Part shown: positions 7,150 to 38,199 of the stretch, in pieces
Layout of the letters: each line of letters begins with the position of its first letter
Position numbering within the stretch: position 1 is the first letter of the stretch
Source: Chrysomallon squamiferum
Taxonomy: Eukaryota; Animalia; Mollusca
Direction of reading: 5' to 3'
DNA: 64,000 nt
Assembly: GCA_012295275.1 (NCBI GenBank)
Contig: CM022665.1
Span: forward strand, 1,550,001 to 1,614,000
Program-made: the position numbers and the translations under genes
Notes under the pieces: generated by a model
What the model was told of the DNA's origin: nothing
Seen by the model: only the letters and a program-made list of their open reading frames with translations
Database searches by the model: none

Positions 7150-8648
7150 TTATTCTTCTGGATTTGTGGAACATAGTCGCTTGAATACTTGCTCTTTTTC
7201 TAGAATCCAGTAAGTTGATACCCATTTAGAGCCAATAAGAACGGGACAAGCTGCATGAATTGTCATTTTGTTAGGTGAACCATTTCGATATAAATTATAC
7301 CAAATATAGTTGCACCTGCTTTAGGTTGTATTCTTACACCAAGATAAGGAAACACTGTTGCACCTCCTTCTACATCACTCATATAGTTTAACCACGTGGC
7401 AATTCTGTTTTCACTGGAAGAATATGCTATGTTGAAATAGTCAGTATGAGCCGTGAACTGTCCGCCTATTCCATAGTTTGCCACCTGAAGTGGCTCTGAA
7501 GCTTTCATTGAAAGACCTTTGATTGCTTCAATTCTTCTCTGAATTCTCTTGTCTGCTTCTGTGAAAGTTCTTCCTAGAAATGTATTTTTGCTAATTCTTA
7601 TCTCAGATTTGAAAATGTTTCCATACTGATTGATTTCAGATGTTTTTAAAAGTGGCATAGAAACTTTTTTAATGTCTTCAATTTCAGCATCACTGATAAA
7701 ATCATGATAGAGAACAATTTTCGGTGAGAAATGCAGAATCTCTTCTTTAGCAGGCTTAAGAATTAGAAGCGGATTTTTGTTGTTGTAATGGTAGCGACAT
7801 TTCAGACGATGTCGCTGTCGTACTTTAATAACGTCTTCACCACGACAGAGAGCATCGAAAGTTGTTTTTTCTTTAATTCTGGCATTTTCTTTTCTCTTTT
7901 CTTTCCTACATTTTGATATACTTATATACTTTTTCCTTCTTTTCGGAGCACGTTCTAGTTCAGGAGATAACATTAACTGTTTATTTGTCAAATTTAAAAC
8001 GTGTTCTATCTGTCCCGCTAATTCTCTACCGTGTATTTCATAGCCATGAATTTTTTCTGTTCTTACTTTCTCAAGACTTGTCTCCATCCAGATATGAACA
8101 TAGTTGTATTTTTTCATTTTGTAAGCAAGGCGACCTAATTGATAACAGTCTTCTGCTGATAATATCTGTATATATCGTTCATATATAAAACCGGCTGCTA
8201 ATCTTGTCGCATTTAATTTGTATGTATCCTGAAGTCGGAACAGAGCTGCAGCGACCCCTTCTAAATCTTCGTAACTTGGAAGATGTTCACGAATTTCTTG
8301 TAGTTCAGTCAGCTCTGTCTGGGACGTAATACTTTCGTGAAGAATAGGCTGCACATCTCGTTCCCAGTCCAAAGTGAAACGTTTAATATATAAAAATGCA
8401 CCAATTGGGTTGGCTATGTAACGATTTGGGTCTTTTAGTGCTATCGAACAGTGCTGTTCCATTTGATCTGAAATTGTTTTCAACTTTTCCAATTTAGTTT
8501 CTTGTTCATGAAAGTGACTGAAATTTCTTAATGCTATTGCCAAGTCTCTTCCTGCTAGTACAGAGCTGTAGAGATGTGATACGGACGTAAACAGTTCTGA
8601 ATTCACAGCTGATAAAAGCAAAACTAAAATAATGTACTGCTGATACAT
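7150..8648 (-). CDS. P4HA: Collagen prolyl 4-hydroxylase alpha subunit-like, intronless; ~499 aa if a 1-nt frameshift at 7302-7304 is corrected (sequencing error or young pseudogene)
   Basis: Signal peptide then ELFTS; P4HA N-domain (NPIGAFLYIKRFTLDW, LFRLQDTYKL, LSAEDCYQLGRLAY); LCRGE...LKCRY; RISKNTFL; EPLQVANYGIGGQFTAHTDY (HxD); NRIATWLNYMSDVEGGATVFP. Shifted frame continues WYNLYRNG...HAACPVLIGSKWVSTYWILEKEQVFKRLCSTNPEE* with stop at 7150-7152. Confidence 0.92.
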
Positions 8649-16172: not shown

Positions 16173-17075
16173 TTACACAAATCCTAGTAAACGACCTATC
16201 AGAAGACAAAATTCAATTAGAACAAATAAGATTTTCCACAACAGAGAACTAAATATACGACTAAAATACGTAAATATACGACCGATATACGCAAATATAC
16301 GTCTGATGAATCCAGCTGCAGAATGTCGTCTGACTCTTCTGACTCTTTTGACTCTGAGAGGTGGCAATGTGTACATCTCGCAGTTTCCATCTCTTAAGTT
16401 GTACACGATGGCGGTGAATCTTGCAGAGCAAACTGGACAATTTCTTCTGCTTCTAGACCACCTCTCCAAACAGCTGAAACAAAATTCATGTAAACACGAG
16501 TCTGCATGACACTTATCTAAAAATTCTTCTGAACACAAAGAACAAGTAGGTGACTTATCTGATTCAGGCTGTTGTGTTGATTCAGCAGTGCTGGGTGATG
16601 GTGATGTTGACATCCCTGGTCTTTCTCCACATGCTGCTTTTACAGGGTCACGTTCGGAAATCTTTCGCCCTTTTGGAGGCTTCTCTGGGCACCCATCATC
16701 CTGTGCTTTCCGTTTCCTAGATGTTGATGTCCCTGGTCCTCTACGTGATGTTTCTCCAGGGTCACGTTCGGAAATCTTTCGCCCTTTTGGAGGCTTCTTC
16801 GGGCACCCATCATCCTGTGCTTTCCGTTTCCTAGATGTTGATGTCCCTGGTCCTCTACGTGATGTTTCTCCAGGGTCACGTTCGGAAATCTTTCGCCCTT
16901 TTGGAGGCTTCTTCGGGCACCCATCATCCTGTGCTTTCCGTTTCCTAGATGTTGTTGTCCCTGGTCCTCTACGTGATGTTTCTCCAGGTTCGGAAATCTT
17001 TCGCCCTTTTGGAGGCTTTTCAGGGCACTCATCATCCTGTGCTTTCCTTTTCTTGGACGCTCTTACTTTTCCCAT
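16173..17075 (-). CDS. Single-exon C3HC4 RING finger protein, TOPORS-like putative E3 ligase, 300 aa
   Basis: CSLC-x12-CLHEFCFSCLERWSRSRRNCPVC followed by SARFTAIVYNLRDGNCEMYTLPP, resembling the TOPORS RING and its post-RING segment; four ~40-aa K/R-rich repeats at the N-terminus; hydrophobic C-terminus; GC-richer than flanks. Confidence 0.8.
   Translation of the reverse strand: MGKVRASKKRKAQDDECPEKPPKGRKISEPGETSRRGPGTTTSRKRKAQDDGCPKKPPKGRKISERDPGETSRRGPGTSTSRKRKAQDDGCPKKPPKGRKISERDPGETSRRGPGTSTSRKRKAQDDGCPEKPPKGRKISERDPVKAACGERPGMSTSPSPSTAESTQQPESDKSPTCSLCSEEFLDKCHADSCLHEFCFSCLERWSRSRRNCPVCSARFTAIVYNLRDGNCEMYTLPPLRVKRVRRVRRHSAAGFIRRIFAYIGRIFTYFSRIFSSLLWKILFVLIEFCLLIGRLLGFV
16643..17052 (-). 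repeat. Coding 120-bp tandem repeat (about 3.5 copies) inside the RING gene
   Basis: Unit encodes RKRKAQDDGCPKKPPKGRKISERDPGETSRRGPGTSTS-like peptide; copies nearly identical, first copy 6 bp shorter. Confidence 0.95.
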
Positions 17076-17897: not shown

Positions 17898-18219
17898 TCA
17901 ACCAGATGGTCGGATGTCCCAAAAACGCGAAGAATCACCGCAGGATTACCTCCCAGCATTTGCTAGTGCTAGCTCAGTTTACACACAAGCACGTGGCGAA
18001 TACTGAGAAAAAATATGCCTGCGATTACGTTTCGAAAGATGCGCGTAGAAGAGTTGTGAAGTAAAGCTCATCCGATACTCTCCCAGCATTTGCTAGTGCT
18101 AGCAGAACGTGAAACGCCAGCACAACCAAATACAAGCAAAGTACTGATGATGTCTTTCTCTTAATGTACGTAATGCGTAACTTTTCGTCATTTCGTCGTC
18201 TACTTGCGACGGCGATGTT
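17898..18219 (-). repeat. 322-bp inverted copy of part of the array unit, containing hairpins H2 and H3 on the minus strand; pairs with 18386-18707
   Basis: Reverse complement of AACATCGCC...CCATCTGGTTGA; CTCCCAGCATTTGCTAGTGCTA at 17950-17971 and 18080-18101. Confidence 0.95.
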
Positions 18220-19427
18220 CACATTTAGTTTTCTTCAACAGAAACTGTACGAGACAATTTCCTGATATGTTATTTCACGAGCACGAAACAAATACCAGAA
18301 CGTATTTGTTTCGTGCTCGTGACGTAAAACACAACTAGCACTAGCAAATGCTGGAGGTTTATCGAATAGACAGCTGCGCTTCCGAAACATCGCCGTCGCA
18401 AGTAGACGACGAAATGACGAAAAGTTACGCATTACGTACATTAAGAGAAAGACATCATCAGTACTTTGCTTGTATTTGGTTGTGCTGGCGTTTCACGTTC
18501 TGCTAGCACTAGCAAATGCTGGGAGAGTATCGGATGAGCTTTACTTCACAACTCTTCTACGCGCATCTTTCGAAACGTAATCGCTGGCATATTTTTTCTC
18601 AGTATTCGCCACGTGCTTGTGTGTAAACTGAGCTAGCACTAGCAAATGCTGGGAGGTAATCCTGCGGTGATTCTTCGCGTTTTTGGGACATCCGACCATC
18701 TGGTTGAAAGCCTTTCCTTTTTAGCTAAATTATGCTCAAACCGCTACCAGATCACAGAAGACACCACTCAAATTTATTTACGACCATCACGTCCTTAATA
18801 CTTTGCTAGTATTTCTTGGTGCTGGCGTTTCACGTCTTGTTAGCACTAGCAAATGCTGGGAGAGTATAGTACGAAATGCACTTCAACAACGATACCTTTT
18901 GAGCGAAGTAATGCTGTTTCCGCAAACAGATCACAAAAGCAGTCAGATTTATTTAGGACGACTACATCGTTAGCACTCTGCTAGCATTTCTTTGTGCTGG
19001 TGTGTCACAAAGTACTAGCACTAGCAAATGCTGGGAGAGTATAGTACGAAATGCACTTCAACAACGATACGTAAACTGCACGGCCATCATTTCGTTCGTA
19101 ATCCGTTTTTTTTTTTTTTTTTTTCTTTAAAAGCGCTTGGTAATTTGAATTTTCGACGTCGAAATTTCTAATTAGTCCAATTAAGTAAACAATGCTTGAT
19201 GTTTCAACCAAGTGATAACTAGCGGTTGTCAATGAGTCAATTCAAAATTCATTCACTCTCACTGTCAGCTCACTGCCTCATTTACGAAGTATAAGTAATT
19301 TCAGATACTTCTAATATCGTTGCAGATGCAGGCGTCGTCTCCAGTCACATCAGCTTTCAGGTATTATTTGCTTTTCTTCACATTTAGTTTTCTTCAACAG
19401 AAACTGTACGAGACAATTTCCTGATAT

Positions 19428-19516
19428 GTTATTTCTAAACGTTCTGGTATTTGTTTCGTGCTCGTGACGTAAAACACAACTAGCACTAGCAAATGCTGGA
19501 GGTTTATCGAATAGAC
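19428..19516 (+). ncRNA. Pre-miRNA-like hairpin H1 (representative copy); mature candidate 19481-19502 UAGCACUAGCAAAUGCUGGAGG
   Basis: 5' arm TTCTGGTATTTGTTTCGTGCTCG pairs with the 3' arm; lower stem TAAAC/GTTTA; CTAC 17 nt after the arm. Confidence 0.75.
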
Positions 19517-19597
19517 AGCTACGCTTCCGAAACATCGCCGTCGCAAGTAGACGACGAAATGACGAAAACTTACGCATTACGTACATTAAGAGAAAGA

Positions 19598-19681
19598 CAT
19601 CATCAGTACTTTGTTTGTATTTGGTTGTGCTGGCGTTTCACGTTCTGCTAGCACTAGCAAATGCTGGGAGAGTATCGGATG
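19598..19681 (+). ncRNA. Pre-miRNA-like hairpin H2 (representative); mature candidate 19649-19670 UAGCACUAGCAAAUGCUGGGAG
   Basis: TACTTTGYTTGTATTTGGTTGTGCTGGCG - loop TTTCACGTTC - TGCTAGCACTAGCAAATGCTGGGAGAGTA; CTTC 19 nt after the arm. Confidence 0.78.
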
Positions 19682-19726
19682 AGCTTTACTTCACAACTCT
19701 TCTACGCGCATCTTTCGAAACGTAAT

Positions 19727-19813
19727 CGCAGGCATATTTTTTTTCTCAGTATTCGCCACGTGCTTGTGTGTAAACTGAGCTAGCACTAGCAAATGCTGGG
19801 AGGTAATCCTGCG
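19727..19813 (+). ncRNA. Pre-miRNA-like hairpin H3 (representative); mature candidate 19781-19802
   Basis: TTTCTCAGTATTCGCCACGTGCTTGT pairs with GCTAGCAC...GGGAGG; basal CGCAGG/CCTGCG; apical UGUG; CTTC 18 nt after the arm. Confidence 0.78.
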
Positions 19814-19935
19814 GTGATTCTTCGCGTTTTTGGGACATCCGACCATCTGGTTGAAAGCCTTTCCTTTTAGCTAAATTATGCTCAAACCGCTACCAGATCA
19901 CAGAAGACACCACTCAAATTTATTTACGACCATCA

Positions 19936-20019
19936 CGTCCTTAATACTTTGCTAGTATTTCTTGGTGCTGGCGTTTCACGTCTTGTTAGCACTAGCAAAT
20001 GCTGGGAGAGTATAGTACG
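19936..20019 (+). ncRNA. Pre-miRNA-like hairpin H4 (representative); mature candidate 19987-20008
   Basis: ATACTTTGCTAGTATTTCTTGGTGCTGGCG - loop TTTCACGTCT - TGTTAGCACTAGCAAATGCTGGGAGAGTAT; CTTC 19 nt after the arm. Confidence 0.78.
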
Positions 20020-20112
20020 AAATGCACTTCAACAACGATACCTTTTGAGCGAAGTAATGCTGTTTCCGCAAACAGATCACAAAAGCAGTCAGATTTATTT
20101 AGGACGACTACA

Positions 20113-20195
20113 TCGTTAGCACTCTGCTAGCATTTCTTTGTGCTGGTGTGTCACAAAGTACTAGCACTAGCAAATGCTGGGAGAGTATAGTACGA
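20113..20195 (+). ncRNA. Pre-miRNA-like hairpin H5 (representative); mature candidate 20162-20183
   Basis: ACTCTGCTAGCATTTCTTTGTGCTGGTG - loop TGTCACAAAG - TACTAGCACTAGCAAATGCTGGGAGAGT; basal TCGT/ACGA; apical UGUG; CTTC 19 nt after the arm. Confidence 0.78.
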
Positions 20196-20249
20196 AATGC
20201 ACTTCAACAACGATACGTAAACTGCACGGCCATCATTTCGTTCGTAATC

Positions 20250-20500
20250 CGTTTTTTTTTCTTTAAAAGCGCTTGGTAATTTGAATTTTCGACGTCGAAA
20301 TTTCTAATTAGTCCAATTAAGTAAACAATGCTTGATGTTTCAACCAAGTGATAACTAGCGGTTGTCAATGAGTCAATTCAAAATTCATTCACTCACTGTC
20401 AGCTCACTGCCCATTTACGAAGTATAAGTAATTTCAGATACTTCTAATATCGTTGCAGATGCAGGCGTCGTCTCCAGTCACATCAGCTTTCAGGTATTAT
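20250..20500 (+). promoter_or_regulatory. Hairpin-free spacer of each unit, candidate per-unit promoter (representative copy)
   Basis: T-tract 20252-20264, palindrome TTTCGACGTCGAAA 20287-20300, CCAAT about 20313, TGAGTCA 20369-20375, TATAAGTA 20423-20430, upstream of H1; motif-level evidence only. Confidence 0.35.
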
Positions 20501-23500
20501 TTGCTTTTCTTCACATTTAGTTTTCTTCAACAGAAACTGTACGAGACAATTTCCTGATATGTTATTTCTAAACGTTCTGGTATTTGTTTCGTGCTCGTGA
20601 CGTAAAACACAACTAGCACTAGCAAATGCTGGAGGTTTATCGAATAGACAGCTACGCTTCCGAAACATCGCCGTCGCAAGTAGACGACGAAATGACGAAA
20701 ACTTACGCATTACGTACATTAAGAGAAAGACATCATCAGTACTTTGCTTGTATTTGGTTGTGCTGGCGTTTCACGTTCTGCTAGCACTAGCAAATGCTGG
20801 GAGAGTATCGGATGAGCTTTACTTCACAACTCTTCTACGCGCATCTTTCGAAACGTAATCGCAGGCATATTTTTTCTCAGTATTCGCCACGTGCTTGTGT
20901 GTAAACTGAGCTAGCACTAGCAAATGCTGGGAGGTAATCCTGCGGTGATTCTTCGCGTTTTTGGGACATCCGACCATCTGGTTGAAAGCCTTTCCTTTTT
21001 AGCTAAATTATGCTCAAACCGCTACCAGATCACAGAAGACACCACTCAAATTTATTTACGACCATCACGTCCTTAATACTTTGCTAGTATTTCTTGGTGC
21101 TGGCGTTTCACGTCTTGTTAGCACTAGCAAATGCTGGGAGAGTATAGTACGAAATGCACTTCAACAACGATACCTTTTGAGCGAAGTAATGCTGTTTCCG
21201 CAAACAGATCACAAAAAGCAGTCAGATTTATTTAGGACGACTACATCGTTAGCACTCTGCTAGCATTTCTTTGTGCTGGTGTGTCACAAAGTACTAGCAC
21301 TAGCAAATGCTGGGAGAGTATAGTACGAAATGCACTTCAACAACGATACGTAAACTGCACGGCCATCATTTCGTTCGTAATCCGTTTTTTTTTTTTTTAA
21401 AAGCGCTTGGTAATTTGAATTTTCGACGTCGAAATTTCTAATTAGTCCAATTAAGTAAACAATGCTTGATGTTTCAACCAAGTGATAACTAGCGGTTGTC
21501 AATGAGTCAATTCAAAATTCATTCACTCACTGTCAGTCAGCTCACTGCCTCATTTACGAAGTATAAGTAATTTCAGATACTTCTAATATCGTTGCAGATG
21601 CAGGCGTCGTCTCCAGTCACATCAGCTTTCAGGTATTATTTGCTTTTCTTCACATTTAGTTTTCTTCAACAGAAACTGTACGAGACAATTTCCTGATATG
21701 TTATTTCTAAACGTTCTGGTATTTGTTTCGTGCTCGTGACGTAAAACACAACTAGCACTAGCAAATGCTGGAGGTTTATCGAATAGACAGCTACGCTTCC
21801 GAAACATCGCCGTCGCAAGTAGACGACGAAATGACGAAAACTTACGCATTACGTACATTAAGAGAAAGACATCATCAGTACTTTGTTTGTATTTGGTTGT
21901 GCTGGCGTTTCACGTTCTGCTAGCACTAGCAAATGCTGGGAGAGTATCGGATGAGCTTTACTTCACAACTCTTCTACGCGCATCTTTCGAAACGTAATCG
22001 CAGGCATATTTTTTCTCAGTATTCGCCACGTGCTTGTGTGTAAACTGAGCTAGCACTAGCAAATGCTGGGAGGTAATCCTGCGGTGATTCTTCGCGTTTT
22101 TGGGACATCCGACCATCTGGTTGAAAGCCTTTCCTTTTAGCTAAATTATGCTCAAACCGCTACCAGATCACAGAAGACACCACTCAAATTTATTTACGAC
22201 CATCACGTCCTTAATACTTTGCTAGTATTTCTTGGTGCTGGCGTTTCACGTCTTGTTAGCACTAGCAAATGCTGGGAGAGTATAGTACGAAATGCACTTC
22301 AACAACGATACCTTTTGAGCGAAGTAATGCTGTTTCCGCAAACAGATCACAAAAGCAGTCAGATTTATTTAGGACGACTACATCGTTAGCACTCTGCTAG
22401 CATTTCTTTGTGCTGGTGTGTCACAAAGTACTAGCACTAGCAAATGCTGGGAGAGTATAGTACGAAATGCACTTCAACAACGATACGTAAACTGCACGGC
22501 CATCATTTCGTTCGTAATCCGTTTTTTTTTTTTCTTTAAAAGCGCTTGGTAATTTGAATTTTCGACGTCGAAATTTCTAATTAGTCCAATTAAGTAAACA
22601 ATGCTTGATGTTTCAACCAAGTGATAACTAGCGGTTGTCAATGAGTCAATTCAAAATTCATTCACTCACTGTCAGCTCACTGCCTCATTTACGAAGTATA
22701 AGTAATTTCAGATACTTCTAATATCGTTGCAGATGCAGGCGTCGTCTCCAGTCACATCAGCTTTCAGGTATTATTTGCTTTTCTTCACATTTAGTTTTCT
22801 TCAACAGAAACTGTACGAGACAATTTCCTGATATGTTATTTCTAAACGTTCTGGTATTTGTTTCGTGCTCGTGACGTAAAACACAACTAGCACTAGCAAA
22901 TGCTGGAGGTTTATCGAATAGACAGCTACGCTTCCGAAACATCGCCGTCGCAAGTAGACGACGAAATGACGAAAACTTACGCATTACGTACATTAAGAGA
23001 AAGACATCATCAGTACTTTGTTTGTATTTATTGTTGTGCTGGCGTTTCACGTTCTGCTAGCACTAGCAAATGCTGGGAGAGTATCGGATGAGCTTTACTT
23101 CACAACTCTTCTACGCGCATCTTTCGAAACGTAATCGCAGGCATATTTTTTCTCAGTATTCGCCACGTGCTTGTGTGTAAACTGAGCTAGCACTAGCAAA
23201 TGCTGGGAGGTAATCCTGCGGTGATTCTTCGCGTTTTTGGGACATCCGACCATCTGGTTGAAAGCCTTTCCTTTTAGCTAAATTATGCTCAAACCGCTAC
23301 CAGATCACAGAAGACACCACTCAAATTTATTTACGACCATCACGTCCTTAATACTTTGCTAGTATTTCTTGGTGCTGGCGTTTCACGTCTTGTTAGCACT
23401 AGCAAATGCTGGGAGAGTATAGTACGAAATGCACTTCAACAACGATACCTTTTGAGCGAAGTAATGCTGTTTCCGCAAACAGATCACAAAAAGCAGTCAG

Positions 23501-26500
23501 ATTTATTTAGGACGACTACATCGTTAGCACTCTGCTAGCATTTCTTTGTGCTGGTGTGTCACAAAGTACTAGCACTAGCAAATGCTGGGAGAGTATAGTA
23601 CGAAATGCACTTCAACAACGATACGTAAACTGCACGGCCATCATTTCGTTCGTAATCCGTTTTTTTTCTTCTTTAAAAGCGCTTGGTAATTTGAATTTTC
23701 GACGTCGAAATTTCTAATTAGTCCAATTAAGTAAACAATGCTTGATGTTTCAACCAAGTGATAACTAGCGGTTGTCAATGAGTCAATTCAAAATTCATTC
23801 ACTCACTGTCAGCTCACTGCCCTCATTTACGAAGTATAAGTAATTTCAGATACTTCTAATATCGTTGCAGATGCAGGCGTCGTCTCCAGTCACATCAGCT
23901 TTCAGGTATTATTTGCTTTTCTTCACACATTTAGTTTTCTTCAACAGAAACTGTACGAGACAATTTCCTGATATGTTATTTCTAAACGTTCTGGTATTTG
24001 TTTCGTGCTCGTGACGTAAAACACAACTAGCACTAGCAAATGCTGGAGGTTTATCGAATAGACAGCTACGCTTCCGAAACATCGCCGTCGCAAGTAGACG
24101 ACGAAATGACGAAAACTTACGCATTACGTACATTAAGAGAAAGACATCATCAGTACTTTGTTTGTATTTGGTTGTGCTGGCGTTTCACGTTCTGCTAGCA
24201 CTAGCAAATGCTGGGAGAGTATCGGATGAGCTTTACTTCACAACTCTTCTACGCGCATCTTTCGAAACGTAATCGCAGGCATATTTTTTTCTCAGAATTC
24301 GCCACGTGCTTGTGTGTAAACTGAGCTAGCACTAGCAAATGCTGGGAGGTAATCCTGCGGTGATTCTTCGCGTTTTTGGGACATCCGACCATCTGGTTGA
24401 AAGCCTTTCCTTTTTAGCTAAATTATGCTCAAACCGCTACCAGATCACAGAAGACACCACTCAAATTTATTTACGACCATCACGTCCTTAATACTTTGCT
24501 AGTATTTCTTGGTGCTGGCGTTTCACGTCTTGTTAGCACTAGCAAATGCTGGGAGAGTATAGTACGAAATGCACTTCAACAACGATACCTTTTGAGCGAA
24601 GTAATGCTGTTTCCGCAAACAGATCACAAAAGCAGTCAGATTTATTTAGGACGACTACATCGTTAGCACTCTGCTAGCATTTCTTTGTGCTGGTGTGTCA
24701 CAAAGTACTAGCACTAGCAAATGCTGGGAGAGTATAGTACGAAATGCACTTCAACAACGATACGTAAACTGCACGGCCATCATTTCGTTCGTAATCCGTT
24801 TTTTTTTTTTTTCTTTAAAAGCGCTTGGTAATTTGAATTTTCGACGTCGAAATTTCTAATTAGTCCAATTAAGTAAACAATGCTTGATGTTTCAACCAAG
24901 TGATAACTAGCGGTTGTCAATGAGTCAATTCAAAATTCATTCACTCACTGTCAGCTCACTGCCCCATTTACGAAGTATAAGTAATTTCAGATACTTCTAA
25001 TATCGTTGCAGATGCAGGCGTCGTCTCCAGTCACATCAGCTTTCAGGTATTATTTGCTTTTCTTCACATTTAGTTTTCTTCAACAGAAACTGTACGAGAC
25101 AATTTCCTGATATGTTATTTCTAAACGTTCTGGTATTTGTTTCGTGCTCGTGACGTAAAACACAACTAGCACTAGCAAATGCTGGAGGTTTATCGAATAG
25201 ACAGCTACGCTTCCGAAACATCGCCGTCGCAAGTAGACGACGAAATGACGAAAACTTACGCATTACGTACATTAAGAGAAAGACATCATCAGTACTTTGC
25301 TTGTATTTGGTTGTGCTGGCGTTTCACGTTCTGCTAGCACTAGCAAATGCTGGGAGAGTATCGGATGAGCTTTACTTCACAACTCTTCTACGCGCATCTT
25401 TCGAAACGTAATCGCAGGCATATTTTTTCAGTATTCGCCACGTGCTTGTGTGTAAACTGAGCTAGCACTAGCAAATGCTGGGAGGTAATCCTGCGGTGAT
25501 TCTTCGCGTTTTTGGGACATCCGACCATCTGGTTGAAAGCCTTTCCTTTTTAGCTAAATTATGCTCAAACCGCTACCAGATCACAGAAGACACCACTCAA
25601 ATTTATTTACGACCATCACGTCCTTAATACTTTGCTAGTATTTCTTGGTGCTGGCGTTTCACGTCTTGTTAGCACTAGCAAATGCTGGGAGAGTATAGTA
25701 CGAAATGCACTTCAACAACGATACCTTTTGAGCGAAGTAATGCTGTTTCCGCAAACAGATCACAAAAAGCAGTCAGATTTATTTAGGACGACTACATCGT
25801 TAGCACTCTGCTAGCATTTCTTTGTGCTGGTGTGTCACAAAGTACTAGCACTAGCAAATGCTGGGAGAGTATAGTACGAAATGCACTTCAACAACGATAC
25901 GTAAACTGCACGGCCATCATTTCGTTCGTAATCCGTTTTTTTTTCTTTAAAAGCGCTTGGTAATTTGAATTTTCGACGTCGAAATTTCTAATTAGTCCAA
26001 TTAAGTAAACAATGCTTGATGTTTCAACCAAGTGATAACTAGCGGTTGTCAATGAGTCAATTCAAAATTCATTCACTCACTGTCAGCTCACTGCCCCATT
26101 TACGAAGTATAAGTAATTTCAGATACTTCTAATATCGTTGCAGATGCAGGCGTCGTCTCCAGTCACATCAGCTTTCAGGTATTATTTGCTTTTCTTCACA
26201 TTTAGTTTTCTTCAACAGAAACTGTACGAGACAATTTCCTGATATGTTATTTCTAAACGTTCTGGTATTTGTTTCGTGCTCGTGACGTAAAACACAACTA
26301 GCACTAGCAAATGCTGGAGGTTTATCGAATAGACAGCTACGCTTCCGAAACATCGCCGTCGCAAGTAGACGACGAAATGACGAAAACTTACGCATTACGT
26401 ACATTAAGAGAAAGACATCATCAGTACTTTGTTTGTATTTGGTTGTGCTGGCGTTTCACGTTCTGCTAGCACTAGCAAATGCTGGGAGAGTATCGGATGA

Positions 26501-29500
26501 GCTTTACTTCACAACTCTTCTACGCGCATCTTTCGGAAACGTAATCGCAGGCATATTTTTCTCAGTATTCGCCACGTGCTTGTGTGTAAACTGAGCTAGC
26601 ACTAGCAAATGCTGGGAGGTAATCCTGCGGTGATTCTTCGCGTTTTGGGACATCCGACCATCTGGTTGAAAGCCTTTCCTTTTAGCTAAATTATGCTCAA
26701 ACCGCTACCAGATCACAGAAGACACCACTCAAATTTATTTACGACCATCACGTCCTTAATACTTTGCTAGTATTTCTTGGTGCTGGCGTTTCACGTCTTG
26801 TTAGCACTAGCAAATGCTGGGAGAGTATAGTACGAAATGCACTTCAACAACGATACCTTTTGAGCGAAGTAATGCTGTTTCCGCAAACAGATCACAAAAG
26901 CAGTCAGATTTATTTAGGACGACTACATCGTTAGCACTCTGCTAGCATTTCTTTGTGCTGGTGTGTCACAAAGTACTAGCACTAGCAAATGCTGGGAGAG
27001 TATAGTACGAAATGCACTTCAACAACGATACGTAAACTGCACGGCCATCATTTCGTTCGTAATCCGTTTTTTTTTTTTTTTTAAAAGCGCTTGGTAATTT
27101 GAATTTTCGACGTCGAAATTTCTAATTAGTCCAATTAAGTAAACAATGCTTGATGTTTCAACCAAGTGATAACTAGCGGTTGTCAATGAGTCAATTCAAA
27201 ATTCATTCACTCACTGTCAGCTCACTGCCTCATTTACGAAGTATAAGTAATTTCAGATACTTCTAATATCGTTGCAGATGCAGGCGTCGTCTCCAGTCAC
27301 ATCAGCTTTCAGGTATTATTTGCTTTTCTTCACATTTAGTTTTCTTCAACAGAAACTGTACGAGACAATTTCCTGATATGTTATTTCTAAACGTTCTGGT
27401 ATTTGTTTCGTGCTCGTGACGTAAAACACAACTAGCACTAGCAAATGCTGGAGGTTTATCGAATAGACAGCTACGCTTCCGAAACATCGCCGTCGCAAGT
27501 AGACGACGAAATGACGAAAACTTACGCATTACGTACATTAAGAGAAAGACATCATCAGTACTTTGTTTGTATTTGGTTGTGCTGGCGTTTCACGTTCTGC
27601 TAGCACTAGCAAATGCTGGGAGAGTATCGGATGAGCTTTACTTCACAACTCTTCTACGCGCATCTTTCGAAACGTAATCGCAGGCATATTTTTTCAGTAT
27701 TCGCCACGTGCTTGTGTGTAAACTGAGCTAGCACTAGCAAATGCTGGGAGGTAATCCTGCGGTGATTCTTCGCGTTTTTGGGACATCCGACCATCTGGTT
27801 GAAAGCCTTTCCTTTTAGCTAAATTATGCTCAAACCGCTACCAGATCACAGAAGACACCACTCAAATTTATTTACGACCATCACGTCCTTAATACTTTGC
27901 TAGTATTTCTTGGTGCTGGCGTTTCACGTCTTGTTAGCACTAGCAAATGCTGGGAGAGTATAGTACGAAATGCACTTCAACAACGATACCTTTTGAGCGA
28001 AGTAATGCTGTTTCCGCAAACAGATCACAAAAAAGCAGTCAGATTTATTTAGGACGACTACATCGTTAGCACTCTGCTAGCATTTCTTTGTGCTGGTGTG
28101 TCACAAAGTACTAGCACTAGCAAATGCTGGGAGAGTATAGTACGAAATGCACTTCAACAACGATACGTAAACTGCACGGCCATCATTTCGTTCGTAATCC
28201 GTTTTTTTTTTTTTTTTAAAAGCGCTTGGTAATTTGAATTTTCGACGTCGAAATTTCTAATTAGTCCAATTAAGTAAACAATGCTTGATGTTTCAACCAA
28301 GTGATAACTAGCGGTTGTCAATGAGTCAATTCAAAATTCATTCACTCACTGTCAGCTCACTGCCTCATTTACGAAGTATAAGTAATTTCAGATACTTCTA
28401 ATATCGTTGCAGATGCAGGCGTCGTCTCCAGTCACATCAGCTTTCAGGTATTATTTGCTTTTCTTCACATTTAGTTTTCTTCAACAGAAACTGTACGAGA
28501 CAATTTCCTGATATGTTATTTCTAAACGTTCTGGTATTTGTTTCGTGCTCGTGACGTAAAACACAACTAGCACTAGCAAATGCTGGAGGTTTATCGAATA
28601 GACAGCTACGCTTCCGAAACATCGCCGTCGCAAGTAGACGACGAAATGACGAAAACTTACGCATTACGTACATTAAGAGAAAGACATCATCAGTACTTTG
28701 CTTGTATTTGGTTGTGCTGGCGTTTCACGTTCTGCTAGCACTAGCAAATGCTGGGAGAGTATCGGATGAGCTTTACTTCACAACTCTTCTACGCGCATCT
28801 TTCGAAACGTAATCGCAGGCATATTTTTTTTTTTCAGTATTCGCCACGTGCTTGTGTGTAAACTGAGCTAGCACTAGCAAATGCTGGGAGGTAATCCTGC
28901 GGTGATTCTTCGCGTTTTTTGGGACATCCGACCATCTGGTTGAAAGCCTTTCCTTTTTAGCTAAATTATGCTCAAACCGCTACCAGATCACAGAAGACAC
29001 CACTCAAATTTATTTACGACCATCACGTCCTTAATACTTTGCTAGTATTTCTTGGTGCTGGCGTTTCACGTCTTGTTAGCACTAGCAAATGCTGGGAGAG
29101 TATAGTACGAAATGCACTTCAACAACGATACCTTTTGAGCGAAGTAATGCTGTTTCCGCAAACAGATCACAAAAAGCAGTCAGATTTATTTAGGACGACT
29201 ACATCGTTAGCACTCTGCTAGCATTTCTTTGTGCTGGTGTGTCACAAAGTACTAGCACTAGCAAATGCTGGGAGAGTATAGTACGAAATGCACTTCAACA
29301 ACGATACGTAAACTGCACGGCCATCATTTCGTTCGTAATCCGTTTTTTTTCTTTTTTAAAAGCGCTTGGTAATTTGAATTTTCGACGTCGAAATTTCTAA
29401 TTAGTCCAATTAAGTAAACAATGCTTGATGTTTCAACCAAGTGATAACTAGCGGTTGTCAATGAGTCAATTCAAAATTCATTCACTCACTGTCAGCTCAC

Positions 29501-32500
29501 TGCCTCATTTACGAAGTATAAGTAATTTCAGATACTTCTAATATCGTTGCAGATGCAGGCGTCGTCTCCAGTCACATCAGCTTTCAGGTATTATTTGCTT
29601 TTCTTCACATTTAGTTTTCTTCAACAGAAACTGTACGAGACAATTTCCTGATATGTTATTTCTAAACGTTCTGGTATTTGTTTCGTGCTCGTGACGTAAA
29701 ACACAACTAGCACTAGCAAATGCTGGAGGTTTATCGAATAGACAGCTACGCTTCCGAAACATCGCCGTCGCAAGTAGACGACGAAATGACGAAAACTTAC
29801 GCATTACGTACATTAAGAGAAAGACATCATCAGTACTTTGCTTGTATTTGGTTGTGCTGGCGTTTCACGTTCTGCTAGCACTAGCAAATGCTGGGAGAGT
29901 ATCGGATGAGCTTTACTTCACAACTCTTCTACGCGCATCTTTCGAAACGTAATCGCAGGCATATTTTTCTCAGTATTCGCCACGTGCTTGTGTGTAAACT
30001 GAGCTAGCACTAGCAAATGCTGGGAGGTAATCCTGCGGTGATTCTTCGCGTTTTTGGGACATCCGACCATCTGGTTGAAAGCCTTTCCTTTTAGCTAAAT
30101 TATGCTCAAACCGCTACCAGATCACAGAAGACACCACTCAAATTTATTTACGACCATCACGTCCTTAATACTTTGCTAGTATTTCTTGGTGCTGGCGTTT
30201 CACGTCTTGTTAGCACTAGCAAATGCTGGGAGAGTATAGTACGAAATGCACTTCAACAACGATACCTTTTGAGCGAAGTAATGCTGTTTCCGCAAACAGA
30301 TCACAAAAGCAGTCAGATTTATTTAGGACGACTACATCGTTAGCACTCTGCTAGCATTTCTTTGTGCTGGTGTGTCACAAAGTACTAGCACTAGCAAATG
30401 CTGGGAGAGTATAGTACGAAATGCACTTCAACAACGATACGTAAACTGCACGGCCATCATTTCGTTCGTAATCCGTTTTTTTTTCTTTAAAAGCGCTTGG
30501 TAATTTGAATTTTCGACGTCGAAATTTCTAATTAGTCCAATTAAGTAAACAATGCTTGATGTTTCAACCAAGTGATAACTAGCGGTTGTCAATGAGTCAA
30601 TTCAAAATTCATTCACTCTCACTGTCAGCTCACTGCCTCATTTACGAAGTATAAGTAATTTCAGATACTTCTAATATCGTTGCAGATGCAGGCGTCGTCT
30701 CCAGTCACATCAGCTTTCAGGTATTATTTGCTTTTCTTCACATTTAGTTTTCTTCAACAGAAACTGTACGAGACAATTTCCTGATATGTTATTTCTAAAC
30801 GTTCTGGTATTTGTTTCGTGCTCGTGACGTAAAACACAACTAGCACTAGCAAATGCTGGAGGTTTATCGAATAGACAGCTACGCTTCCGAAAACATCGCC
30901 GTCGCAAGTAGACGACGAAATGACGAAAACTTACGCATTACGTACATTAAGAGAAAGACATCATCAGTACTTTGTTTGTATTTGGTTGTGCTGGCGTTTC
31001 ACGTTCTGCTAGCACTAGCAAATGCTGGGAGAGTATCGGATGAGCTTTACTTCACAACTCTTCTACGCGCATCTTTCGAAACGTAATCGCAGGCATATTT
31101 TTTTCTCAGTATTCGCCACGTGCTTGTGTGTAAACTGAGCTAGCACTAGCAAATGCTGGGAGGTAATCCTGCGGTGATTCTTCGCGTTTTGGGACATCCG
31201 ACCATCTGGTTGAAAGCCTTTCCTTTTAGCTAAATTATGCTCAAACCGCTACCAGATCACAGAAGACACCACTCAAATTTATTTACGACCATCACGTCCT
31301 TAATACTTTGCTAGTATTTCTTGGTGCTGGCGTTTCACGTCTTGTTAGCACTAGCAAATGCTGGGAGAGTATAGTACGAAATGCACTTCAACAACGATAC
31401 CTTTTGAGCGAAGTAATGCTGTTTCCGCAAACAGATCACAAAAGCAGTCAGATTTATTTAGGACGACTACATCGTTAGCACTCTGCTAGCATTTCTTTGT
31501 GCTGGTGTGTCACAAAGTACTAGCACTAGCAAATGCTGGGAGAGTATAGTACGAAATGCACTTCAACAACGATACGTAAACTGCACGGCCATCATTTCGT
31601 TCGTAATCCGTTTTTTTTTTTTTTTTTAAAAGCGCTTGGTAATTTGAATTTTCGACGTCGAAATTTCTAATTAGTCCAATTAAGTAAACAATGCTTGATG
31701 TTTCAACCAAGTGATAACTAGCGGTTGTCAATGAGTCAATTCAAAATTCATTCACTCTCACTGTCAGCTCACTGCCTCATTTACGAAGTATAAGTAATTT
31801 CAGATACTTCTAATATCGTTGCAGATGCAGGCGTCGTCTCCAGTCACATCAGCTTTCAGGTATTATTTGCTTTTCTTCACATTTAGTTTTCTTCAACAGA
31901 AACTGTACGAGACAATTTCCTGATATGTTATTTCTAAACGTTCTGGTATTTGTTTCGTGCTCGTGACGTAAAACACAACTAGCACTAGCAAATGCTGGAG
32001 GTTTATCGAATAGACAGCTACGCTTCCGAAACATCGCCGTCGCAAGTAGACGACGAAATGACGAAAACTTACGCATTACGTACATTAAGAGAAAGACATC
32101 ATCAGTACTTTGCTTGTATTTGGTTGTGCTGGCGTTTCACGTTCTGCTAGCACTAGCAAATGCTGGGAGAGTATCGGATGAGCTTTACTTCACAACTCTT
32201 CTACGCGCATCTTTCGAAACGTAATCGCAGGCATATTTTTTTTCTCAGTATTCGCCACGTGCTTGTGTGTAAACTGAGCTAGCACTAGCAAATGCTGGGA
32301 GGTAATCCTGCGGTGATTCTTCGCGTTTTTGGGACATCCGACCATCTGGTTGAAAGCCTTTCCTTTTTAGCTAAATTATGCTCAAACCGCTACCAGATCA
32401 CAGAAGACACCACTCAAATTTATTTACGACCATCACGTCCTTAATACTTTGCTAGTATTTCTTGGTGCTGGCGTTTCACGTCTTGTTAGCACTAGCAAAT

Positions 32501-35500
32501 GCTGGGAGAGTATAGTACGAAATGCACTTCAACAACGATACCTTTTGAGCGAAGTAATGCTGTTTCCGCAAACAGATCACAAAAGCAGTCAGATTTATTT
32601 AGGACGACTACATCGTTAGCACTCTGCTAGCATTTCTTTGTGCTGGTGTGTCACAAAGTACTAGCACTAGCAAATGCTGGGAGAGTATAGTACGAAATGC
32701 ACTTCAACAACGATACGTAAACTGCACGGCCATCATTTCGTTCGTAATCCGTTTTTTTTTTTTTTTTTAAAAGCTTGGTAATTTGAATTTTCGACGTCGA
32801 AATTTCTAATTAGTCCAATTAAGTAAACAATGCTTGATGTTTCAACCAAGTGATAACTAGCGGTTGTCAATGAGTCAATTCAAAATTCATTCACTCTCAC
32901 TGTCAGCTCACTGCCTCATTTACGAAGTATAAGTAATTTCAGATACTTCTAATATCGTTGCAGATGCAGGCGTCGTCTCCAGTCACATCAGCTTTCAGGT
33001 ATTATTTGCTTTTCTTCACATTTAGTTTTCTTCAACAGAAACTGTACGAGACAATTTCCTGATATGTTATTTCTAAACGTTCTGGTATTTGTTTCGTGCT
33101 CGTGACGTAAAACACAACTAGCACTAGCAAATGCTGGAGGTTTATCGAATAGACAGCTACGCTTCCGAAACATCGCCGTCGCAAGTAGACGACGAAATGA
33201 CGAAAACTTACGCATTACGTACATTAAGAGAAAGACATCATCAGTACTTTGCTTGTATTTGGTTGTGCTGGCGTTTCACGTTCTGCTAGCACTAGCAAAT
33301 GCTGGGAGAGTATCGGATGAGCTTTACTTCACAACTCTTCTACGCGCATCTTTCGAAACGTAATCGCAGGCATATTTTTTCTCAGTATTCGCCACGTGCT
33401 TGTGTGTAAACTGAGCTAGCACTAGCAAATGCTGGGAGGTAATCCTGCGGTGATTCTTCGCGTTTTTGGGACATCCGACCATCTGGTTGAAAGCCTTTCC
33501 TTTTAGCTAAATTATGCTCAAACCGCTACCAGATCACAGAAGACACCACTCAAATTTATTTACGACCATCACGTCCTTAATACTTTGCTAGTATTTCTTG
33601 GTGCTGGCGTTTCACGTCTTGTTAGCACTAGCAAATGCTGGGAGAGTATAGTACGAAATGCACTTCAACAACGATACCTTTTGAGCGAAGTAATGCTGTT
33701 TCCGCAAACAGATCACAAAAAGCAGTCAGATTTATTTAGGACGACTACATCGTTAGCACTCTGCTAGCATTTCTTTGTGCTGGTGTGTCACAAAGTACTA
33801 GCACTAGCAAATGCTGGGAGAGTATAGTACGAAATGCACTTCAACAACGATACGTAAACTGCACGGCCATCATTTCGTTCGTAATCCGTTTTTTTTCTTC
33901 TTTAAAAGCGCTTGGTAATTTGAATTTTCGACGTCGAAATTTCTAATTAGTCCAATTAAGTAAACAATGCTTGATGTTTCAACCAAGTGATAACTAGCGG
34001 TTGTCAATGAGTCAATTCAAAATTCATTCACTCTCACTGTCAGCTCACTGCCTCATTTACGAAGTATAAGTAATTTCAGATACTTCTAATATCGTTGCAG
34101 ATGCAGGCGTCGTCTCCAGTCACATCAGCTTTCAGGTATTATTTGCTTTTCTTCACATTTAGTTTTCTTCAACAGAAACTGTACGAGACAATTTCCTGAT
34201 ATGTTATTTCTAAACGTTCTGGTATTTGTTTCGTGCTCGTGACGTAAAACACAACTAGCACTAGCAAATGCTGGAGGTTTATCGAATAGACAGCTACGCT
34301 TCCGAAACATCGCCGTCGCAAGTAGACGACGAAATGACGAAAACTTACGCATTACGTACATTAAGAGAAAGACATCATCAGTACTTTGCTTGTATTTGGT
34401 TGTGCTGGCGTTTCACGTTCTGCTAGCACTAGCAAATGCTGGGAGAGTATCGGATGAGCTTTACTTCACAACTCTTCTACGCGCATCTTTCGAAACGTAA
34501 TCGCAGGCATATTTTTTTCAGTATTCGCCACGTGCTTGTGTGTAAACTGAGCTAGCACTAGCAAATGCTGGGAGGTAATCCTGCGGTGATTCTTCGCGTT
34601 TTTGGGACATCCGACCATCTGGTTGAAAGCCTTTCCTTTTTAGCTAAATTATGCTCAAACCGCTACCAGATCACAGAAGACACCACTCAAATTTATTTAC
34701 GACCATCACGTCCTTAATACTTTGCTAGTATTTCTTGGTGCTGGCGTTTCACGTCTTGTTAGCACTAGCAAATGCTGGGAGAGTATAGTACGAAATGCAC
34801 TTCAACAACGATACCTTTTGAGCGAAGTAATGCTGTTTCCGCAAACAGATCACAAAAGCAGTCAGATTTATTTAGGACGACTACATCGTTAGCACTCTGC
34901 TAGCATTTCTTTGTGCTGGTGTGTCACAAAGTACTAGCACTAGCAAATGCTGGGAGAGTATAGTACGAAATGCACTTCAACAACGATACGTAAACTGCAC
35001 GGCCATCATTTCGTTCGTAATCCGTTTTTTTTTTTTTTTTTCTTTAAAAGCGCTTGGTAATTTGAATTTTCGACGTCGAAATTTCTAATTAGTCCAATTA
35101 AGTAAACAATGCTTGATGTTTCAACCAAGTGATAACTAGCGGTTGTCAATGAGTCAATTCAAAATTCATTCACTCTCACTGTCAGCTCACTGCCTCATTT
35201 ACGAAGTATAAGTAATTTCAGATACTTCTAATATCGTTGCAGATGCAGGCGTCGTCTCCAGTCACATCAGCTTTCAGGTATTATTTGCTTTTCTTCACAT
35301 TTAGTTTTCTTCAACAGAAACTGTACGAGACAATTTCCTGATATGTTATTTCTAAACGTTCTGGTATTTGTTTCGTGCTCGTGACGTAAAACACAACTAG
35401 CACTAGCAAATGCTGGAGGTTTATCGAATAGACAGCTACGCTTCCGAAACATCGCCGTCGCAAGTAGACGACGAAATGACGAAAACTTACGCATTACGTA

Positions 35501-38199
35501 CATTAAGAGAAAGACATCATCAGTACTTTGCTTGTATTTGGTTGTGCTGGCGTTTCACGTTCTGCTAGCACTAGCAAATGCTGGGAGAGTATCGGATGAG
35601 CTTTACTTCACAACTCTTCTACGCGCATCTTTCGAAACGTAATCGCAGGCATATTTTTTCAGTATTCGCCACGTGCTTGTGTGTAAACTGAGCTAGCACT
35701 AGCAAATGCTGGGAGGTAATCCTGCGGTGATTCTTCGCGTTTTTGGGACATCCGACCATCTGGTTGAAAGCCTTTCCTTTTAGCTAAATTATGCTCAAAC
35801 CGCTACCAGATCACAGAAGACACCACTCAAATTTATTTACGACCATCACGTCCTTAATACTTTGCTAGTATTTCTTGGTGCTGGCGTTTCACGTCTTGTT
35901 AGCACTAGCAAATGCTGGGAGAGTATAGTACGAAATGCACTTCAACAACGATACCTTTTGAGCGAAGTAATGCTGTTTCCGCAAACAGATCACAAAAAGC
36001 AGTCAGATTTATTTAGGACGACTACATCGTTAGCACTCTGCTAGCATTTCTTTGTGCTGGTGTGTCACAAAGTACTAGCACTAGCAAATGCTGGGAGAGT
36101 ATAGTACGAAATGCACTTCAACAACGATACGTAAACTGCACGGCCATCATTTCGTTCGTAATCCGTTTTTTTTTTTTTTAAAAGCGCTTGGTAATTTGAA
36201 TTTTCGACGTCGAAATTTCTAATTAGTCCAATTAAGTAAACAATGCTTGATGTTTCAACCAAGTGATAACTAGCGGTTGTCAATGAGTCAATTCAAAATT
36301 CATTCACTCTCACTGTCAGCTCACTGCCTCATTTACGAAGTATAAGTAATTTCAGATACTTCTAATATCGTTGCAGATGCAGGCGTCGTCTCCAGTCACA
36401 TCAGCTTTCAGGTATTATTTGCTTTTCTTCACATTTAGTTTTCTTCAACAGAAACTGTACGAGACAATTTCCTGATATGTTATTTCTAAACGTTCTGGTA
36501 TTTGTTTCGTGCTCGTGACGTAAAACACAACTAGCACTAGCAAATGCTGGAGGTTTATCGAATAGACAGCTACGCTTCCGAAACATCGCCGTCGCAAGTA
36601 GACGACGAAATGACGAAAACTTACGCATTACGTACATTAAGAGAAAGACATCATCAGTACTTTGCTTGTATTTGGTTGTGCTGGCGTTTCACGTTCTGCT
36701 AGCACTAGCAAATGCTGGGAGAGTATCGGATGAGCTTTACTTCACAACTCTTCTACGCGCATCTTTCGAAACGTAATCGCAGGCATATTTTTTCTCAGTA
36801 TTCGCCACGTGCTTGTGTGTAAACTGAGCTAGCACTAGCAAATGCTGGGAGGTAATCCTGCGGTGATTCTTCGCGTTTTTGGGACATCCGACCATCTGGT
36901 TGAAAGCCTTTCCTTTTTAGCTAAATTATGCTCAAACCGCTACCAGATCACAGAAGACACCACTCAAATTTATTTACGACCATCACGTCCTTAATACTTT
37001 GCTAGTATTTCTTGGTGCTGGCGTTTCACGTCTTGTTAGCACTAGCAAATGCTGGGAGAGTATAGTACGAAATGCACTTCAACAACGATACCTTTTGAGC
37101 GAAGTAATGCTGTTTCCGCAAACAGATCACAAAAGCAGTCAGATTTATTTAGGACGACTACATCGTTAGCACTCTGCTAGCATTTCTTTGTGCTGGTGTG
37201 TCACAAAGTACTAGCACTAGCAAATGCTGGGAGAGTATAGTACGAAATGCACTTCAACAACGATACGTAAACTGCACGGCCATCATTTCGTTCGTAATCC
37301 GTTTTTTTTTTTTTTTCTTTAAAAGCGCTTGGTAATTTGAATTTTCGACGTCGAAATTTCTAATTAGTCCAATTAAGTAAACAATGCTTGATGTTTCAAC
37401 CAAGTGATAACTAGCGGTTGTCAATGAGTCAATTCAAAATTCATTCACTCTCACTGTCAGCTCACTGCCTCATTTACGAAGTATAAGTAATTTCAGATAC
37501 TTCTAATATCGTTGCAGATGCAGGCGTCGTCTCCAGTCACATCAGCTTTCAGGTATTATTTGCTTTTCTTCACATTTAGTTTTCTTCAACAGAAACTGTA
37601 CGAGACAATTTCCTGATATGTTATTTCTAAACGTTCTGGTATTTGTTTCGTGCTCGTGACGTAAAACACAACTAGCACTAGCAAATGCTGGAGGTTTATC
37701 GAATAGACAGCTACGCTTCCGAAACATCGCCGTCGCAAGTAGACGACGAAATGACGAAAACTTACGCATTACGTACATTAAGAGAAAGACATCATCAGTA
37801 CTTTGCTTGTATTTGGTTGTGCTGGCGTTTCACGTTCTGCTAGCACTAGCAAATGCTGGGAGAGTATCGGATGAGCTTTACTTCACAACTCTTCTACGCG
37901 CATCTTTCGAAACGTAATCGCAGGCATATTTTTTCTCAGTATTCGCCACGTGCTTGTGTGTAAACTGAGCTAGCACTAGCAAATGCTGGGAGGTAATCCT
38001 GCGGTGATTCTTCGCGTTTTTGGGACATCCGACCATCTGGTTGAAAGCCTTTCCTTTTTAGCTAAATTATGCTCAAACCGCTACCAGATCACAGAAGACA
38101 CCACTCAAATTTATTTACGACCATCACGTCCTTAATACTTTGCTAGTATTTCTTGGTGCTGGCGTTTCACGTCTTTTTAGCACTAGCAACTGCAATGTA

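Follow-up and report, generated by a model that had tools for sequence, protein, structure and literature searches.

The 64,000-nt stretch of the Chrysomallon squamiferum genome analysed here, referred to below as the window, contains a tandem array (18220..38190, + strand) of about 17.5 units with five hairpins each, comprising 88 + strand copies of a common 3' arm with the shared seed AGCACUA. The array hairpins are very likely real microRNA genes read from the + strand. Their arrangement is probably that of a multi-promoter microRNA locus that would release a zygotic burst of the AGCACUA seed and function like fish miR-430.

The length of the array units varies from 1131 to 1142 nt (about 1.13-1.14 kb), and five hairpins, H1 to H5, make up the 1.14-kb unit taken as the reference. 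The 19-nt core of the arm occurs 88 times on the + strand (18 H1, 18 H2, 18 H3, 17 H4, and 17 H5) and twice on the - strand. The initial annotation had fixed the cluster on the + strand; this holds for the 88 copies and fails for one H2 and one H3 contained in an inverted 322-nt copy (17898..18219, - strand) at the left array end. On the right, the array breaks off within a truncated H4 (38134..38190, + strand), halfway through its 3' arm. The region 17898-18337 on the left comprises the inverted H2-H3 copy, which is perfect over its 322 nt, and a short fold-back wrecking the 5' arm of the first H1. Either a long read folded back on itself and left an artefact here, or the inverted duplication is real, in which case it could give rise to long double-stranded RNA against the array.

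The array units are 99.7% alike (15 aligned segments compared, one of them a double unit). Most differences between them are in homopolymer lengths, while two common substitutions segregate among the units, one being a C/T variant in H2. An assembly artefact produced from a few-copy cluster would fit the dominance of homopolymer lengths and the perfect inverted copy with its fold-back. This explanation is nevertheless extremely improbable, since the head-to-tail unit joint is present in public contigs, the two substitutions segregate among units, and contig depth in run X1 is near 984 on the unit versus 3.8 and 5.4 on two paralogous fragments, which serve here in place of a single-copy control. 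The depth hints at more units than the 17 assembled, and the assembly more likely under-counts them. The low-depth X1 contigs (3.8-5.4) carry the common arm within other flanks, with loose ends at window positions 19471 and 19593-19652, and belong elsewhere in the genome; one is a hairpin of a sixth type, the other a copy whose arm has a deletion. In run X11, contigs with depths of 4000 and 7364 resemble the arm and its surroundings over about 39 nt, with 5-6 differences, which hints at another high-copy array. The observed/expected CpG ratio is 1.22 in the array (18336-38190) versus 0.26 in the body of the neighbouring dynein gene, which suggests that the array is unmethylated; the feature is not general, given a ratio of 0.25 in the related array L006 described below.

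All five predicted precursors of the reference unit are encoded on the + strand. H1 (19443..19502) has its 3' arm at 19481-19502 and a CNNC motif at 19519-19522 (position 17), and H2 (19613..19670) has its 3' arm at 19649-19670, the C/T variant at 19614 and CNNC at 19689-19692 (position 19). H3 (19745..19802; 3' arm 19781-19802) contains apical UGUG and is followed by CNNC at 19820-19823 (position 18). H4 (19951..20008; 3' arm 19987-20008) is followed by CRC at position 17 and CNNC at 20027-20030 (position 19). H5 (20126..20183; 3' arm 20162-20183) again contains apical UGUG and has the same 3' flank as H4, with CRC at position 17 and CNNC at position 19. As the flanks of H4 and H5 are identical and that of H2 is related to them, the five hairpins represent three lineages.

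A scan of metagenome contigs revealed 25 loci, two of which are arrays (L006 and L014), with hosts that may not be molluscs. L006 consists of a single 1.61-kb unit in which one hairpin is followed by three triplets, 10 hairpins in all; the unit of L014, about 1 kb long, has four. The other 23 loci were rejected as single matches without a full hairpin. L007 scored 33.5 bits with the hairpin model but was also rejected: its fold reaches -17.4, and the search pattern is present in it by construction. Both arrays keep the 3' arm, while their loops and flanks are divergent. H2, H4, and H5 are closest to the C type of L006 (80% over 84 nt); by sequence similarity H1 may correspond to type B and H3 to type D, which are weaker assignments.

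Sixteen of the 19 hairpins of the three organisms were aligned, after removal of three near-duplicates from L006, and all have the same letters at positions 1-9 of the arm. Conservation decreases along the 3' arm from 1.00 at the seed end to 0.94 and 0.77, and is 0.78 in the 5' arm, 0.53 in the loop and 0.50-0.54 in the flanks. The mature arm thus exceeds the star, loop and flanks, as in other microRNA genes. In hairpins 1 and 2 on the - strand of L014, the arm departs from the consensus at positions 10-15 with the seed unchanged; 3' pairing therefore varies within one unit.

Animal microRNA precursors are hairpins with arms of about 22 nt, at least 16 paired bases and a loop of 8-40 nt. The array hairpins have these canonical arms, pairing and loops, with loops of 12-15 nt in all 19 hairpins. 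Folding of both strands, proposed as a check in the initial annotation, yielded lower RNA energies on the + strand for all five window hairpins: -28.9 versus -15.0 kcal/mol for H1, -35.6 versus -17.9 for H2, -34.0 versus -27.4 for H3, -35.9 versus -15.9 for H4, and -36.0 versus -28.7 for H5. Compared with 200 dinucleotide shuffles, the z-scores on the + strand range from -3.0 to -5.3 in all five; on the - strand H3 and H5 alone are below chance, with z about -3. All 19 hairpins of the three organisms fold better in the + orientation, and the consensus energy is -18.8 on this strand versus -6.1 on the other.

The pairing register was fixed from the invariant columns to avoid circularity, and the opposing bases were then classed. 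The 320 cells of 16 hairpins comprise 219 Watson-Crick pairs, 63 G:U, 4 A:C and 34 other combinations, with G:U at 11 and A:C at 3 of the 20 positions. The G:T stem pairs quoted earlier for H2 and H1 are present as written, and the five window hairpins contain 21 G:U versus 1 A:C in 100 cells. These cells are related by descent, which deprives a nominal P value of meaning, while the direction is clear. Paired cells make up 93.4% of the 320 versus 89.7% in shuffles, none of 500 shuffles being as high. The covariation proposed as a further check was recovered for cells, with double-sided changes in 12 versus 3.9 in shuffles (1 of 500 as high), but not for pairs, of which 5 changed on both sides versus 2.8 in shuffles, a difference that is not significant (38 of 500 as high). 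Covariation is thus modest, as is to be expected with an arm that hardly varies. The first U of the 3' arm is unpaired or in a G:U pair in all 16 aligned hairpins.

Canonical CNNC motifs are located about 16-18 nt past the 3' cut, and CRC at position 17 can serve as an alternative, according to the part of PMC9905709 consulted. The CNNC starts at positions 17, 19, 18, 19, and 19 in H1-H5 are as the initial annotation gave them; its remark that H1-H4 differ in their flanks needs qualifying, since the flank of H4 is identical to that of H5 and related to that of H2. Within the window, CNNC is found at 16-18 in two of the five hairpins, or two of three lineages (P=0.09), and at the post hoc interval 17-19 in three of three lineages (P=0.007). 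In the three organisms, 16 of the 19 hairpins have a CNNC starting at 17-19 and 13 have one at 16-18; the expectation from shuffled flanks is 2.6. When each type is counted once, the types being partly homologous, CNNC occurs at 16-18 in 8 of 11, against 1.5 expected. The canonical spacing is thus present across the three organisms, with CRC at 17 in H4 and H5 and position 19 only in H2.

Apical UGUG in H3 and H5 is located, as had been noticed, at the apical junction, where the 5' arm is predicted to end; UGU or GUG was seen by eye, with no null computed, in the 8-nt junction of 14 of the 19 hairpins. The optional basal UG at -14 was found in none of the five window hairpins and in two of the 19 in the three organisms. 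The C/T variant indeed replaces C:G by U:G at position 19614 (C in 11 and T in 7 of the 18 + strand H2 copies; 2.3 kcal/mol), but it is a single transition, weak on its own, and was discarded as stand-alone evidence of selection, with which it is compatible without being proof of it. In H2 and H3, two variants that each occur once disrupt the stem. On window data alone, the CNNC, UGUG and C/T points are weak.

Probable members of the same family, as judged by sequence, have been sequenced in oyster. Data accompanying PMC4138081 include eight precursors with the seed AGCACUA on the 3' arm (m0214, m0215, m0338, m0341, m0342, m0345, m0347, and m0348), loosely spaced on two scaffolds, six of them within 4.1 kb. 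Six were rejected there as candidates and two were filed as novel and oyster-specific; m0214 and miR-430 have no occurrences in the main text of PMC4138081. A manual count for two oyster members gives agreement with the window arm at 17-18 of 22 letters. Discrete reads are reported in these data for both arms, in accordance with the precise ends expected of a microRNA. In contrast to the proposed 3'-arm product, m0214 has more reads from the 5' arm than from the 3' arm (322 versus 38). The 3'-arm reads begin one base before the seed in seven of the eight precursors, and several 5' arms are 23 nt long, ending 2-3 bases past the paired core (PMC4138081, data covered). These read-defined ends agree with the cut register predicted from sequence for the window hairpins.

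Two RNA runs (X7 and X10) contain unspliced contigs only, with the same break points as DNA; they were rejected as evidence of expression, since DNA carry-over explains them. Satellite DNA, or an inverted-repeat element acting at the DNA level without an RNA product, would be consistent with this possible DNA origin of the RNA-run coverage, with the near-identity of the units and with the lack of an Rfam family match. It is highly improbable all the same: neutral decay of an inverted repeat is expected to leave G:T and A:C in equal numbers, against the 63 and 4 seen, H1 and H3 folded as DNA are no better than shuffles, conservation peaks on the seed, and the oyster homologues yield discrete reads from both arms.

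The array hairpins, taken as microRNA genes, may also be related to a cluster of an annelid. An embryonic tandem cluster of Capitella teleta on CAPTEscaffold_488 was called reminiscent of miR-430 (PMC8915122, part covered). At least nine of its rows have the AGCAC core, and at least three have an AGCACUA stretch with a similar 5' arm; the mature form starts one base earlier, giving the seed AAGCAC followed by U or C (PMC8915122, same part). Like the window array, it comprises tandem 3'-arm microRNAs with an AGCAC core, but its members are diverse and not homogenised. Homology of this cluster to the mollusc family is likely from the sequences, although not proven. Searches for the seed gave a single chance hit in the supplement of PMC11067994, which covers adult tissues, no family member there or in that of PMC9699675, and no match in the supplement of PMC11701709, which gives family names only, from MirGeneDB 3.0.

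Each unit of the array contains one promoter-like block (19169..19322, + strand, 17 copies), the putative function of which is suggested by its motifs. These are presumably a homeodomain-type site (19169), a CCAAT box (19177), a forkhead-type site (19186), an E-box (19209), TALE-type half-sites (19227 and 19263), a TATA-like box (19290) and an initiator-like motif ending at 19322. Outside the hairpins, this block alone aligns with L006 (70% over 120 nt, E=2.4e-7; score 81 versus a mean of 25 and a maximum of 42 in 500 shuffles), while all four tested spacers score at chance. The order of motifs is identical in both, and the distance from the TATA-like box to the initiator-like motif is about 29 nt in the window and 34-36 nt in L006. 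The upstream region of L014 gave no alignment with the window block; it contains a TATA-like box and seven TALE-type half-sites in the 300 nt ahead of the hairpins (shuffle mean 0.65). The enrichment of TALE-type half-sites has P=0.012 in L006 and P=0.06 in the window. TALE and Fox genes are among the earliest upregulated in Owenia embryos (PMC12550047, part covered), and a link between them and the block motifs is speculation by analogy. A splice-donor-like motif (19358..19366, + strand) is located about 40 nt past the predicted start near 19319, at the same place as in L006, and no splice joint of a spliced form was found in the public contigs. An AT-rich 34-nt palindrome (19141-19174) lies directly upstream of the block in each unit. 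A bacterial promoter scan, irrelevant here, was empty. The initial annotation proposed that selection acts on RNA structure rather than on a DNA motif; the RNA part is borne out by the 19 folds and the consensus energies, while the exclusion of a DNA motif is incomplete in view of the conserved promoter-like block in each unit.

The sequence of this block suggests that each unit probably has its own promoter. Alternatively, a single upstream promoter could produce a long polycistron, the repeated block serving in processing or termination, or having merely been carried along when the array was amplified. A canonical poly(A) signal is indeed absent from the unit, RNA-run contigs span the unit junction, and the first partial unit has no upstream block. 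Against this unlikely alternative, the CCAAT, TATA-like and initiator-like motifs occur in promoter order, the block is conserved while spacers are not, and L014 also has its TATA-like box and TALE-type half-sites ahead of the hairpins.

The array is intergenic. An intronless 300-aa ORF (16173-17075, - strand) with three to four basic 38-aa repeats followed by a C3HC4 RING finger is located about 800 nt to the left, divergent from the array. Fish miR-430 is adjoined by early zinc-finger genes. To the right, a gene for an axonemal dynein heavy chain has its last exon ending 2.6 kb from the array; the 3' part of this DNAH5/8-like gene (40781-64000, - strand) is convergent with the array and usable as a synteny anchor. 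Farther to the left, an intronless prolyl 4-hydroxylase alpha ORF of 461 aa (7263-8648, - strand) with an incomplete catalytic domain is likely a retrocopy; among the best 42 of 120 matches, all named hits are from molluscs, the top one with 45% identity.

In the proposed mechanism, a TATA promoter in each unit would drive a short polycistronic pri-miRNA. Judging by hairpin anatomy and oyster read ends, Drosha/DGCR8, aided by an SRSF3-type factor on CNNC or CRC, would cut out precursors of 58-60 nt. Dicer would then free the 22-nt 3' arm, the loading of which may be favoured by its unpaired or G:U-paired first U. Expression would be zygotic and transient, as suggested by oyster and Capitella, and target mRNAs with a match to the seed would be repressed or cleared. 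As the least certain step, the copy number could provide a fast high dose at genome activation, clearing maternal mRNAs that match AGCACUA.

By analogy with oyster, a burst of expression in the early embryo is quite likely. In the columns covered of PMC4138081, a set that excludes the male gonad, no oyster reads are recorded from egg, spat, juvenile or eight adult organs including the female gonad. They appear first, and are highest per million, at the blastula stage, and continue through the trochophore, fading by the D larva. The level is modest, with 107 RPM for m0214-3p at blastula, where miR-29 has 93 RPM (PMC4138081, same columns). The persistence to the D larva, this modest level and a role in metamorphosis also proposed by the Capitella authors (PMC8915122, part covered) would suit another use of a real microRNA array, in germ line, testis or larval timing, with copies raised by drift or unequal crossing-over. 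Such a use is rather improbable in view of the zero reads in egg and female gonad and the maximum at blastula; moreover, a TATA-like block per unit is a trait of the earliest zygotic genes in fish (10.1101/2021.08.09.455629, part covered). Within the preferred reading of early zygotic expression, maternal clearance as the main job of the microRNA is a guess by analogy that has slightly less than an even chance of being right.

The kind of locus is already known, as a spiralian miR-430-like cluster was noted in Capitella and the oyster members were sequenced. Among the papers listed by the literature search, none connects the oyster and Capitella members, gives the family a mollusc-wide name or describes an array with a promoter in each unit, and none of these points appears in the covered parts of PMC11701709, PMC12479628, PMC11067994 and PMC12257675 (including its microRNA section). 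The family may already have a name in MirGeneDB or miRBase. A tentative, rather doubtful extension is that molluscs and annelids share an old, unrecognised early-embryo family with the AGCAC core, the spiralian equivalent of miR-430. The promoter-dense gastropod array would then have evolved independently, perhaps with at least 100 TATA units under maternal TALE/Fox control, forming a transcription body and clearing maternal mRNAs. It is largely an open question how embryos with spiral cleavage dispose of maternal mRNA and turn on transcription of their own, and the terms microRNA and miRNA do not occur in the text of a 2025 study of annelid genome activation. The locus supplies a candidate regulator, a seed and a putative promoter, joins separately published oyster and Capitella data, and opens the question to tests in oyster, abalone or Capitella.

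Among known families, MIR-29 shares with the array a 3'-arm product, the first six letters and position 8. It was rejected as the family of the hairpins, since its seed is AGCACCA, with a different position 7, and 9 of 20 letters agree without gaps (manual count). In oyster, miR-29 is encoded by separate genes expressed at all stages. A distant origin of the window family from MIR-29 is possible. Rfam gave no gathering-level match in the 64 kb, and the unit had no hit, mir-29 included, with E values allowed up to 5; 14 weak matches in L006 and L014 were rejected as far below gathering. Membership in the MIR-430/MIR-302 family was also rejected, the seed being AAGUGCU there and AGCACUA here, with no Rfam match; miR-430 has been reported absent from molluscs. 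Taken as the reverse complement, positions 2-7 of the H2 arm (19650-19655) are identical to six letters of the miR-430 seed, probably by coincidence.

The closest known system in organisation is the zebrafish miR-430 locus, where a transcription body, early firing and maternal clearance have been shown, while the window locus is known from its sequence. The zebrafish unit consists of a TATA promoter and triplets (10.1101/2021.08.09.455629, part covered), and more than 300 promoters are present there versus 17 blocks assembled here (10.1101/2021.08.09.455629; PMC10417697, parts covered). Shared features are tandem homogenised units of 1-2 kb, a TATA promoter (putative in the window) with repeated hairpins and one 3'-arm seed; the block of L006 with one hairpin and three triplets resembles the promoter-plus-triplets unit of zebrafish. 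By sequence, the plan of a putative repeated promoter with same-seed hairpins is found in the window (17 blocks, 88 hairpins), in L006 and in L014. If the promoter-per-unit plan is true, the miR-430 design would have arisen twice, independently. The locus is not of the miR-430 family but, by this analogy, probably works like it.
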